Below, in pieces: positions 35,649 through 37,830 of a stretch of DNA of 39,175 bases. The number at the start of each line of letters is the position of its first letter. The stretch's first letter is position 1. Under the pieces are notes generated by a model. It saw nothing but the letters and a program-made list of their open reading frames with translations, was not told where the DNA came from and did no database searches. The DNA is from a virus. Lineage: Duplodnaviria; Heunggongvirae; Uroviricota; Caudoviricetes. The DNA is taken from IMG/VR virus record IMGVR_UViG_2627853910_000005; one strand, written 5' to 3'. The position numbers were made by a program, and so were the translations under genes.

Positions 35649-35992
35649 CGTATGTGAACAGACACGTCTATGGCACGGTAAGCGTCTGTCTGAGCGATAT
35701 AGGCACGGACGTTGCTATCCACAAGCATTAATTATCAGGAAACGGGGACCGCTCCCCAAGCATGATGTATTGAAACGAAGACATTTACACAATGATAGAA
35801 AAAATACTAAAATAATGATTCAACTCAAAGAGTTGATGTGCATAAAATGCCTCACCAGCCTAGGTGAACATTTTCATGGGTGGGAAAAAACATGATGTGG
35901 ACCACACTTCCCCCTCTAAAATGAGGGGAAAGAGTATGGTTTTGTTGTACACTAAAGGCCATATGGTTTTTTATTATGTTTGGATAAGATAA

Positions 35993-36178
35993 ATGAATGT
36001 AATAGCATTTAATGAAATAGAATCGAGCATCGCCGCCAATGATCAGGTTGATTCTATCTGCATTGAATTAACAACATTTAATCAAGATAATGTCATTTTA
36101 TTTGAAAGTAAAAAGAAAAATAAAGAAATTCTTGATGCATTTTTTGAAATAATAAATACTGATATAGTTTTCGACTAG
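35993..36178 (+). CDS. Small acidic protein (61 aa) upstream of the kinase-deaminase gene
   Basis: ATG-initiated ORF ending 10 nt before the deaminase start, within the same AT-rich block. Weak RBS; it could instead be a non-coding leader. Confidence 0.35.
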   Translation: MNVIAFNEIESSIAANDQVDSICIELTTFNQDNVILFESKKKNKEILDAFFEIINTDIVFD

Positions 36179-36188
36179 GTAATTAGCA

Positions 36189-37784
36189 ATGGCTGAAGCA
36201 GCAAAAAAAACTCCACAAAAGCTGAATGAAAAAAAAGGCTCAACATCGGCATCATCACTTGAGATTGTGAATTCACGACAATCAAAAGATATTTATCTTG
36301 GATTATGTGGATATGTTGGATGTGGAATGAAAACGATAAACAAAATTATCGAAGAGATATCCAAAGAATGGGGGTATAATGTTGTACACATCCGCATAAG
36401 TGCGCTTATGGAAGACCCATTATATTTTGAGCCAGCAGCACTGAAGGTATCCGAAAGCACACAAGTTAATAGACATTTAAAACTCCAGGATATTGCCAAT
36501 AAACTTCGTAAACATTACGAAAAAAATGAGTTGCTTGCAGAAGCTGCTATTGCAGCAATCGCAGCAGCGAAAAAGAATATTGATTATAATAATGATGAAT
36601 ATAAAGGTACTGTCTTCATCATTGATCAATTCAAAAGGCCGGAAGAAATAGAGTTATTCAGAGTTATATATCAGCATAATTTCTATTTGTTAGGAGTTTT
36701 GCGCGATTTAGATTACCGAATTACGAATCTCATTGCTGACGAATCGACAAAGGACGACCTTCATTTAATTATTAATATTGATAATAAATCCTCTGATCCG
36801 TATGGACAAAGAACCGGGGAAACCATTCTTGATTCAGATTTTTTTATTAAAAATAACTTCAGCCAAAAAAGTGAATTAAAGAAGAAGATTGATCGGTTTT
36901 TCGGTCTTATTCATGGCAAAAATGGTTTAACACCAACTTTTAACGAGAAAGGTATGTATGCTGCCTTTTCAACATCATTACAATCAGCTTGTTTATCACG
37001 TCAAGTAGGGGCTGCACTGTTTGATGATGAAGGGAATTTGCTTGCCGTGGGTAAGAACGACGTACCTAAAGCTGGTGGCGGGTTGTATAGCAGTGATGAT
37101 TTTGATAACGATCATCGATGCGTTCACAAAAGTGGTAAGTGTTATAATGATGCAAACAAGCAAAAAATTAAAGACCGTATAAAAAGCATATTATCAACCG
37201 AAGTAAGAAGTGTATTAGGTATTTCCGCAGGACAAACTGTTGCCGATATTAATATAACACGACTTCTAAACAAATTAGATAATATTGCAGAAGGCATTTA
37301 CAAAGACAGCAAAATATCAAGTGTAATGGAGTACTCCAGATCAATTCATGCTGAAATGGACGTCATTACATCAATGGCTAGAAAACAAAACGGCGATACT
37401 AAAGATAAAATTCTTTTTACGACAACCTATCCCTGCCACAACTGTGCAAGGCATATTGTCGCATCTGGAATAAAAAAAGTAGTATATATAGAGCCATTTG
37501 ATAAAAGCCTTGCTCTTGATCTGCATAATGATGCAATAACAAAGAACGAAGAATCTTCCAAAGTAATATTTTGTGATTTTGAGGGGGTATCACCCCGCCG
37601 CTACCATAAATTTTTCAGACCAACGGATGAACGTAAAGATGATAAAACAGGGGATGCAAATAAATTTAATGCTCGCTACAAAAATCATATAGATGTTCAA
37701 TATCTTGATGATTATAGAAAGTATGAGACTGTTGTAGCTAAGAAATTTATAAACGAGATTGCTAAACCAGAGTCTCAGCCATAA
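36189..37784 (+). CDS. P-loop nucleotide kinase-like domain fused to a zinc-dependent cytidine/dCMP deaminase domain
   Basis: 531 aa. C-terminal HAEMDVI (HxE) and YPCHNCARHIVASGIKKVVY (PCxxC) are the deoxycytidylate deaminase zinc motifs. N-terminal GYVGCGMKT and VFIIDQFKRPEE resemble Walker A/B of nucleotide kinases. GC content is far below the prophage average. Confidence 0.8.
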   Translation: MAEAAKKTPQKLNEKKGSTSASSLEIVNSRQSKDIYLGLCGYVGCGMKTINKIIEEISKEWGYNVVHIRISALMEDPLYFEPAALKVSESTQVNRHLKLQDIANKLRKHYEKNELLAEAAIAAIAAAKKNIDYNNDEYKGTVFIIDQFKRPEEIELFRVIYQHNFYLLGVLRDLDYRITNLIADESTKDDLHLIINIDNKSSDPYGQRTGETILDSDFFIKNNFSQKSELKKKIDRFFGLIHGKNGLTPTFNEKGMYAAFSTSLQSACLSRQVGAALFDDEGNLLAVGKNDVPKAGGGLYSSDDFDNDHRCVHKSGKCYNDANKQKIKDRIKSILSTEVRSVLGISAGQTVADINITRLLNKLDNIAEGIYKDSKISSVMEYSRSIHAEMDVITSMARKQNGDTKDKILFTTTYPCHNCARHIVASGIKKVVYIEPFDKSLALDLHNDAITKNEESSKVIFCDFEGVSPRRYHKFFRPTDERKDDKTGDANKFNARYKNHIDVQYLDDYRKYETVVAKKFINEIAKPESQP

Positions 37785-37790
37785 CTGTTT

Positions 37791-37830
37791 CCACTCCTTA
37801 TTTCTGTAAGGATAAGGAGTGGTGTTTTTA
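37791..37830 (+). terminator. Rho-independent terminator after the kinase-deaminase gene
   Basis: CCACTCCTTA-loop-TAAGGAGTGG stem followed by TGTTTTTA, 7 nt after the stop codon. Confidence 0.55.

Follow-up and report, generated by a model that had tools for sequence, protein, structure and literature searches.

A probable AvcID-type nucleotide-depletion defence cassette in a lambdoid prophage, and the coding signature of its partner locus

A two-gene cassette carried as cargo near the integrase gene of a lambdoid prophage (approximately positions 35885–37830, plus strand, from a leader hairpin to a terminator) is highly likely to be an AvcID-type nucleotide-depletion defence module that works as described for its relatives. 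The cassette is located in the window, the whole stretch of 39,175 nucleotides (nt) that was analysed (IMG/VR record IMGVR_UViG_2627853910_000005, a virus of the Caudoviricetes). Its larger gene, avcD (36189–37784, plus strand), encodes an anti-phage dCTP/dCMP deaminase of 531 amino acids, as judged from the open reading frame (ORF), profile matches and an alignment of homologues. Its smaller ORF (35993–36178, plus strand, 186 nt, 61 amino acids) ends 10 nt before the ATG of avcD and is the positional equivalent of avcI/difV. As a defence gene avcD is nothing new, and both the family and the mechanism are already present in the literature and in annotation pipelines. There is one fresh point, which concerns the partner locus. 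In both of the partner families, referred to here as type A (the window and its relatives) and type B (the Vibrio kind), the small ORFs that overlap AvcI evolve under purifying selection that is specific to their reading frame.

The first-pass annotation, made from the sequence alone, had described the 531-residue protein as a fusion of a kinase-like domain and a deaminase domain with HAE and PCxxC motifs, and this architecture is borne out. The C-terminal deaminase domain covers residues ~250–480 (36936–37628, plus strand). Its motifs are read directly from the sequence, HAE at residues 387–389 (37347–37355, plus strand) and PCHNC at residues 415–419 (37431–37445, plus strand). The zinc and catalytic residues of these motifs, His387, Glu389, Cys416 and Cys419, are invariant in 50 homologues. 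Pfam detects the deaminase half only (dCMP_cyt_deam_1, PF00383, E = 4.8e-15, residues 252–434). The N-terminal P-loop-kinase-like domain covers residues ~30–245 (36276–36923, plus strand), with GLCGYVGCGMKT at nt 36300–36335 and the motif IDQ at residues 145–147. Here Cys40, Gly41 and Gly44 of the P-loop-like motif, as well as Asp146 and Gln147, are also invariant among the 50 homologues. The Walker-A lysine is not conserved in the family (Lys48 in the window, Asn in V. cholerae and His in V. parahaemolyticus), which fits the label "kinase-like" that the literature gives to this domain. The AlphaFold2 model of AvcD, calculated with the 50 homologues, has a mean predicted local distance difference test score (pLDDT) of 84 and a predicted template modelling score (pTM) of 0.79.

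The same motifs have been mutated in characterized members of the family. The reported changes are S52K, D162A+Q163A, E384A and C411A+C414A in V. cholerae DcdV/AvcD (Hsueh et al. preprint), and G29A/C30A together with the zinc-ligand cysteines in the E. coli AW1.7 protein (Tal et al. 2021 preprint). Mutating these motifs abolishes activity in both proteins. The invariant residues of the window AvcD lie in these motifs, with the correspondence made by motif rather than residue by residue.

The profile searches and the comparison with AvcD that had been proposed as checks all agree on an anti-phage dCTP deaminase. The NCBIfam equivalog NF041025, "anti-phage dCTP deaminase", matches residues 35–483 with 468.1 bits against a cutoff of 400, and the PADLOC dCTPase model PDLC02373 matches with 548 bits (E = 9.9e-165). 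RefSeq assigns the same function, and the protein aligns over its full length with known AvcDs, all of which supports the nucleotide-depletion identity (AvcD/DCD type) suggested at the outset. The sequence identity is 44–47% to the V. cholerae and V. parahaemolyticus AvcDs (near full length), 61% to the AvcD of plasmid p58 of enterotoxigenic E. coli (ETEC) H10407 (locus L040, 99.5% identical to NC_017723), and 87% to a P. mirabilis allele (L051), which may or may not be the AR_379 allele (WP_108717204.1) that was tested experimentally.

A phage gene for a deaminase could also be a nucleotide-metabolism enzyme, that is, a dCMP deaminase like T4 Cd that feeds dTTP synthesis for replication of the prophage. 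T4 Cd and other phage and cellular dCMP deaminases share with AvcD the zinc-dependent cytidine deaminase (CDA) fold and the HAE and PCxxC motifs. However, these enzymes are single-domain proteins of ~140–190 residues with no kinase-like domain and no antitoxin partner, whereas the window protein has 531 residues in two domains, the additional one being kinase-like. A sequence search of the Protein Data Bank finds no solved AvcD structure, and the best match there is T4 Cd (1vq2), over only ~60 residues (382–440). The housekeeping ComEB equivalog TIGR02571 scores 39.9 bits against its cutoff of 219. The best PHROG match is phrog_9198, a family of unknown function and not one of the Cd families. 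Moreover, no near-identical copy of avcD was found by megablast in 50,697 phage records, and only four of them match by tblastn, at 33–41% identity and with three distinct sequences among them. We regard a metabolic role of the T4 Cd kind as highly improbable.

The only AvcD-like sequences in the phage database are MT839973.1 and MT838710.1, two 5-kb records named 'Bacteriophage sp.' from human faeces, and positions 32219–33613 of Burkholderia phage phiE094. The first two resemble the small AvcID plasmids in size, and could be plasmid sequences that were mislabelled as phage.

Whether the protein is a described family member or a variant had been left open in the first-pass annotation; it is a described member. 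The catalogue of the defence family in Table S1 of Tal et al. lists "Escherichia coli FAP1 ... 531 aa", and adjacent GenBank records of E. coli FAP1 match the window exactly, AIT33180.1 for AvcD and AIT33181.1 for the 61-residue ORF. This allele is very probably already in the literature. The exact AvcD protein is also on record as "MULTISPECIES: anti-phage dCTP deaminase [Escherichia]", on 336 contigs. Of 5,426 complete E. coli genomes, 49 carry the cassette DNA at 95–99.9% identity, in every case in the chromosome, and in these 49 genomes the RefSeq product is "anti-phage dCTP deaminase" next to an integrase. More generally, the pair of small ORF and avcD is seen beside integrases (in prophages), in conjugative Tra regions and on small Mob/Rep plasmids.

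The closest relative with experimental data is the AvcID of ETEC H10407 p58. It likewise consists of two genes, with a 61-residue ORF on the same strand that ends 12 nt before a 532-residue AvcD. The ETEC AvcD has the same invariant catalytic and P-loop-like residues as the window AvcD, and the ETEC small ORF is homologous to that of the window and belongs to the same type A family, with the C-terminus ...KEIILD compared to ...TDIVFD in the window. The ETEC system is toxic in experiments, depletes deoxycytidine (dC) nucleotides, and is neutralized by its own upstream region. It differs from that of the window in its location, a 5.8-kb mobilisable plasmid rather than a prophage, and in sequence, the small ORFs being only 26% identical. 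The AvcIDs of V. cholerae VSP-I and of V. parahaemolyticus (DcdV/DifV) have the same two-domain enzyme, directly preceded by a small locus on the same strand, and are the best characterized in mechanism, with an RNA antitoxin that is lost upon transcription shut-off. On the other hand, their small ORF is of type B, mostly basic, and its stop codon lies 45–95 nt before avcD, compared to ~10 nt in the window.

In these systems DifV/AvcI directly precedes the toxin gene on the same strand, and the two are co-transcribed (Hsueh et al. preprint). A small ORF precedes the toxin gene in each of the V. parahaemolyticus, P. mirabilis and ETEC systems, these ORFs being without mutual sequence similarity, and each cognate upstream region neutralizes its own toxin (Hsueh et al. 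preprint). The ETEC, P. mirabilis and Vibrio AvcDs cause filamentation, and ETEC AvcD lowers both dCMP and dCTP (Hsueh et al. preprint). After rifampicin treatment or infection by T5 or T7, AvcI RNA is lost while the AvcD protein stays, and the dC pools then drop (PMC10511110). The dCTP deaminases of this family defend through depletion of dCTP (Tal et al. 2021 preprint). The suggestion that the region upstream of avcD in the window could encode a regulator is therefore well supported, by its AvcI/DifV-like position, orientation and size (186 nt, compared to about 170–220 nt for AvcI loci), and by its homology to the tested ETEC partner.

The characterized E. coli AW1.7 and U09 proteins (Tal et al.) belong to the same defence family according to the catalogue in which the FAP1 gene is listed. 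They combine a kinase-like and a deaminase domain, both of which are required, and dCTP is depleted upon infection. These proteins raise the possibility that the window AvcD is a stand-alone dCTP deaminase, which would sense infection by itself and for which the upstream ORF would be irrelevant. The AW1.7 gene was cloned with only ~80 nt of upstream sequence and still defends, and so works without an AvcI-like partner; annotation pipelines also name the deaminase alone as the defence gene. However, AW1.7 and U09 have 576–577 residues and a GSGCTT P-loop, and are therefore placed in a different subclade from the window AvcD. In addition, homologues from the branch of the window AvcD show toxicity when expressed alone, from which their upstream region rescues the cells, and the small ORF accompanies avcD across unrelated mobile elements and is under purifying selection (see below). 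A stand-alone enzyme is thus very unlikely here, though not to the same degree as a T4 Cd-like one.

The cassette appears as a discrete unit in the window. Homology with the Budvicia, Morganella, E. kobei (Enterobacter) and Pantoea loci begins near 35885 and stops just past the terminator, and the flanking sequences are unrelated. Judged from these alignments, the cassette is a self-contained mobile unit. Its GC content (35885–37830) is 0.345, compared to 0.483 for the whole window, and is the lowest among all windows of the same length. The AT-richness noted earlier is thus genuine, but the extreme is a narrow one, as the next lowest non-overlapping window of this length, at 19191, has a GC content of 0.352.

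In the conserved leader (35885–35992, plus strand), a hairpin and a U-rich run are accompanied by a conserved TTTTGTAGTA-type box, a candidate –10 element and GGATAAG, which is a weak Shine-Dalgarno sequence. The hairpin first placed at 35908–35930 is real and forms the core of a longer stem, 35900–35941 (–20.3 kcal/mol, folding z score of –3.35), with the U-rich run 3′ of it. In the alignment of loci, its pairing is maintained despite sequence changes. The candidate –10 element, TACACT (35947–35952, plus strand), is read off the alignment only, and its assignment to a promoter is tentative. At the other end, the predicted intrinsic terminator (37791–37830, plus strand) is confirmed. It consists of a 13-bp stem (37791–37822) followed by TGTTTTTAT, a T-run, and has a folding energy of –18.1 kcal/mol and a z score of –5.26, with none of 200 shuffled sequences folding equally well. 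No terminator-like site was found in the interval between the small ORF and avcD, the only flanking terminators being those at 35900–35941 and 37791–37822. A weak promoter-like site is present within the small ORF (36063–36091). The arrangement of terminators would be compatible with an operon of the small ORF and avcD. Rfam scans of 35300–38000 (E up to 1), and also of the whole window, assigned no family to the cassette.

In several E. coli genomes (NZ_CP013662 and related bovine-feces isolates; L035:4288–4985), an IS1A element is inserted at the equivalent of ~35938, between the leader hairpin and the small ORF. The insertion separates the cassette from everything upstream of this point and leaves the small ORF and avcD intact. 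In the records that carry it, the NCBI annotation pipeline (PGAP) calls the 186-nt ORF a hypothetical protein, and avcD is called with a later start, giving 505 residues.

By analogy with the characterized systems, a mechanism can be proposed for the cassette. The avcI locus (35993–36178) and avcD would be co-transcribed from a promoter in the leader. An abundant and short-lived product of the avcI locus would keep pre-made AvcD inactive after translation. When an infecting phage stops host transcription, the inhibitor would decay and AvcD would be freed. The enzyme would then convert dCTP and dCMP to dUTP and dUMP, which would collapse the dC pool and stall replication of the phage DNA. Both domains of AvcD are expected to be necessary, with the deaminase domain performing the chemistry. 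The upstream hairpin and U-run probably insulate the cassette against read-through from the prophage, and the terminator would close it at the downstream end.

Several points weigh against this assignment. The support for this particular allele appears to come from its homologues only. The nearest allele linked to experiments, that of ETEC, shares just 61% identity in AvcD and 26% in the small ORF, and the P. mirabilis and ETEC pairs fail to cross-inhibit each other (Hsueh et al. preprint). The leader is without a convincing sigma-70 promoter. A scan with the sigma-70 consensus found 8 sites, compared to 10.5 expected from shuffled sequence, and none in the leader is convincing. Kinase activity of the N-terminal domain is doubtful, as the canonical Walker-A lysine is not conserved. 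Finally, the partner locus looks protein-coding here, and the RNA nature of the inhibitor has been shown for the Vibrio type only.

The 61-residue ORF had been noted previously as acidic, and its product indeed has a net charge of –8 and an isoelectric point (pI) of 4.1. The loci used for comparison came from a genome scan and contig look-ups. A comparable small ORF is present 5′ of avcD in all 10 diverged type-A loci examined, and type A members are found in the window, ETEC, Proteus, Morganella, Budvicia, Enterobacter, Pantoea, Citrobacter/Dickeya and Providencia. The ORFs encode 61–63 residues (one encodes 84) and end with ...[DE]I[IV]FD, usually with the stop codon 8–12 nt before avcD. The protein family has 53 clusters, nearly all of 61–63 residues and all unnamed, and matches phrog_9966, of unknown function.

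The type A ORF has the signature of a coding sequence. Its frame contains no stop codons in 10 of 10 diverged loci, compared to 3–21 stops in the other two sense frames, and the probability that the frame remains open after shuffling is 0.0002–0.006 per locus. In an ungapped set of five sequences, counted in an alignment-free manner, the numbers of variable columns at the three codon positions are 27, 24 and 46 of 61 (Fisher p = 1.9e-5). The ratio of nonsynonymous to synonymous differences (pN/pS), pooled over three phylogenetically independent ungapped pairs, is 0.36 in the ORF frame (p = 1e-8), compared to 0.74 and 0.96 in the control frames (not significant). The acidic character is likewise preserved, with a net charge of –5 to –10 in 27 of 27 aligned members, even down to 22% identity. 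Shine-Dalgarno-like sequences of –4 to –8 kcal/mol precede all eight type-B ORFs and also the divergent type-A ORFs (–6 to –8 in the latter), against a background in which only 15% of 20-mers reach –4. The corresponding value in the subgroup of the window itself is weak, –3.1. The TAG stop codon of the type A ORF overlaps the conserved TTAGG ribosome-binding site of avcD, which suggests translational coupling between the two genes. Through such coupling, translation of the small ORF may set the ratio of toxin to inhibitor in type A.

The sequence of the small ORF changes at two to three times the rate of AvcD (26–32% versus 60–65% identity for the most distant pairs), and this fits the published cognate specificity. 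The AlphaFold2 model of the 61-residue peptide, based on the 27-sequence alignment, contains a single helix (residues 33–54) and has a pLDDT of 54, a confidence too low to decide whether the protein is folded. For the partner ORF, the coding signature has been computed, and production and any activity of the peptide are inferred.

Type B partners are found in V. cholerae, V. parahaemolyticus, Shewanella, Photobacterium, Pantoea, Rheinheimera and others. Their ORFs encode 53–68 residues, end with ...A..L.W, and stop 45–95 nt before avcD. In V. cholerae, this ORF coincides exactly with the one of 174 nt that has been published. The frame is without stops in 10 of 10 loci, compared to 1–12 stops in the other two sense frames, and the pooled pN/pS (four pairs) is 0.62 in the ORF frame (p = 3e-6), compared to 0.90 and 1.11 in the control frames (not significant). 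The terminal Trp is invariant, and synonymous codons are varied at the conserved Ala and Leu positions. The net charge is +4 to +8 in seven of the eight members. The Vibrio-type AvcI ORFs therefore show a weaker version of the same coding signature. A comparison of the type A and type B profiles by hhalign detected no relationship between them (probability 1%, E = 0.05). Similarity to V. cholerae AvcI is not family-defining, because the authors who described the system also found none among the functional partners.

Two betaproteobacterial loci from metagenome-assembled genomes, with AvcDs 39–40% identical, have instead a conserved same-strand ORF of ~185 residues that ends ~60 nt before avcD (L015:2374–2940 and L018:2372–2926). 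This neighbour could be a third kind of partner that replaces the ORF of 55–60 residues.

The small ORF of the window also contains evidence at the level of RNA. RNAalifold together with single-sequence folding places a hairpin at 36007–36068 (plus strand), with 19 pairs. Across six sequences, 91% of the alignment cells at these pairs are paired, and five pairs are changed on both sides. Among 500 shuffled controls, 4–10 reach the observed values, and controls slid along the alignment pair at 34–44%. The covariation support for this hairpin is moderate, as the test uses six sequences, one of which supplied the structure, and the divergent type-A members do not clearly retain the hairpin. We also considered that the small ORF might be highly structured as RNA over its full length, which the folding z scores do not support; these are mostly unremarkable (–0.06 to –4.1), and a single hairpin is all that stands out. 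Constraints on the RNA and on the protein may coexist in this ORF.

These observations bear on the nature of the inhibitor. In the enterobacterial type A systems, the translated acidic protein of 61 residues could itself inhibit AvcD, as in a type II-like toxin–antitoxin system, instead of or besides the RNA. The open frame in 10 of 10 loci, the distribution of variability over codon positions, the pN/pS of 0.36 in the ORF frame, the acidic charge of all 27 aligned members and the well-scoring Shine-Dalgarno sequences of the divergent type-A members all favour a protein. In addition, independence from translation was tested for V. cholerae only, and the constructs for ETEC and P. mirabilis carried their partners as ORFs (Hsueh et al. 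preprint). In V. cholerae, however, translation of the 174-nt ORF that DifV/AvcI overlaps is dispensable. Constructs without the ribosome-binding site, or with the start codon changed to a stop codon, still inhibit the toxin, and the RNA alone suffices when over-expressed (Hsueh et al. preprint). A complex of AvcI RNA and AvcD has also been reported in vitro (PMC10511110). The low pLDDT of the peptide, the weak Shine-Dalgarno sequence in the subgroup of the window and the covarying hairpin within the ORF likewise count against a protein antitoxin. Moreover, the Vibrio-type ORFs also look coding, so that a coding signature alone does not make the protein the inhibitor. As V. cholerae RNA suffices and the Vibrio ORFs carry this signature, it cannot by itself overturn the RNA-antitoxin model, and a protein antitoxin in type A is rather unlikely, though well ahead of a stand-alone deaminase.

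The cassette is followed by the gene for a tyrosine integrase (37937–39175, minus strand), with Phage_integrase and Arm-DNA-binding domains, which is outside the AvcID system and confirms the integrase-proximal position recognized earlier. The structural module of the lambdoid prophage is 96% identical to phages PhiR47_1 and mEp460, and the integration site in E. coli 13TMH22 adjoins yjjG.

The same arm of the prophage carries, approximately 1.8 kb upstream of avcD, a gene for a YfdR/YfbR-like 5′-deoxynucleotidase (33740–34357, plus strand). The assignment is based on RefSeq annotation and on a Pfam YfbR-like match (E = 2.6e-5) just under the cutoff. Its product would be a second enzyme of the deoxynucleotide pool near the dC-depleting AvcD. 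A neighbouring ORF of 131 residues (34662–35057, plus strand) has no Pfam match at E ≤ 0.001 and contains the sequence ...FDPPHL..., which we take to resemble motif IV (DPPY/DPPH) of amino-DNA methyltransferases. RefSeq marks the equivalent of this ORF as two incomplete pseudogene fragments, and other strains have a PAPS-reductase-family gene at this position.

The other AT-rich islands of the window (~19.0–21.3 kb and 23.1–24.5 kb) were considered as defence cargo and rejected. They appear to be prophage-borne cold-shock-protein loci, with full-length matches to the Rfam cspA thermoregulator at 20423–20839 and 23855–24294 (both on the minus strand; 105 and 160 bits compared to a gathering score of 78).

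The field classes AvcID as a type III system, with an RNA antitoxin, on the basis of the V. cholerae constructs, and AvcI is described as a non-coding RNA in reviews up to 2025. In the literature searched (Hsueh et al. as the preprint), no report of protein-level conservation of the AvcI ORFs was found. The selection observed here in both partner families leads us to suggest, tentatively, that the AvcI partner is translated into a small protein which selection maintains, and that this holds for at least two unrelated families, the acidic type A and the mostly basic type B, a possibility that we rate somewhat above that of a type A protein antitoxin but still below even odds. AvcI would then be a dual-function coding and regulatory RNA, or the type A peptide would itself help to restrain or trigger AvcD. 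Should these peptides be produced and have a function, the model of AvcID regulation would have to be revised with respect to how the toxin is held, how it is released, and why partners are specific to their cognate toxins.

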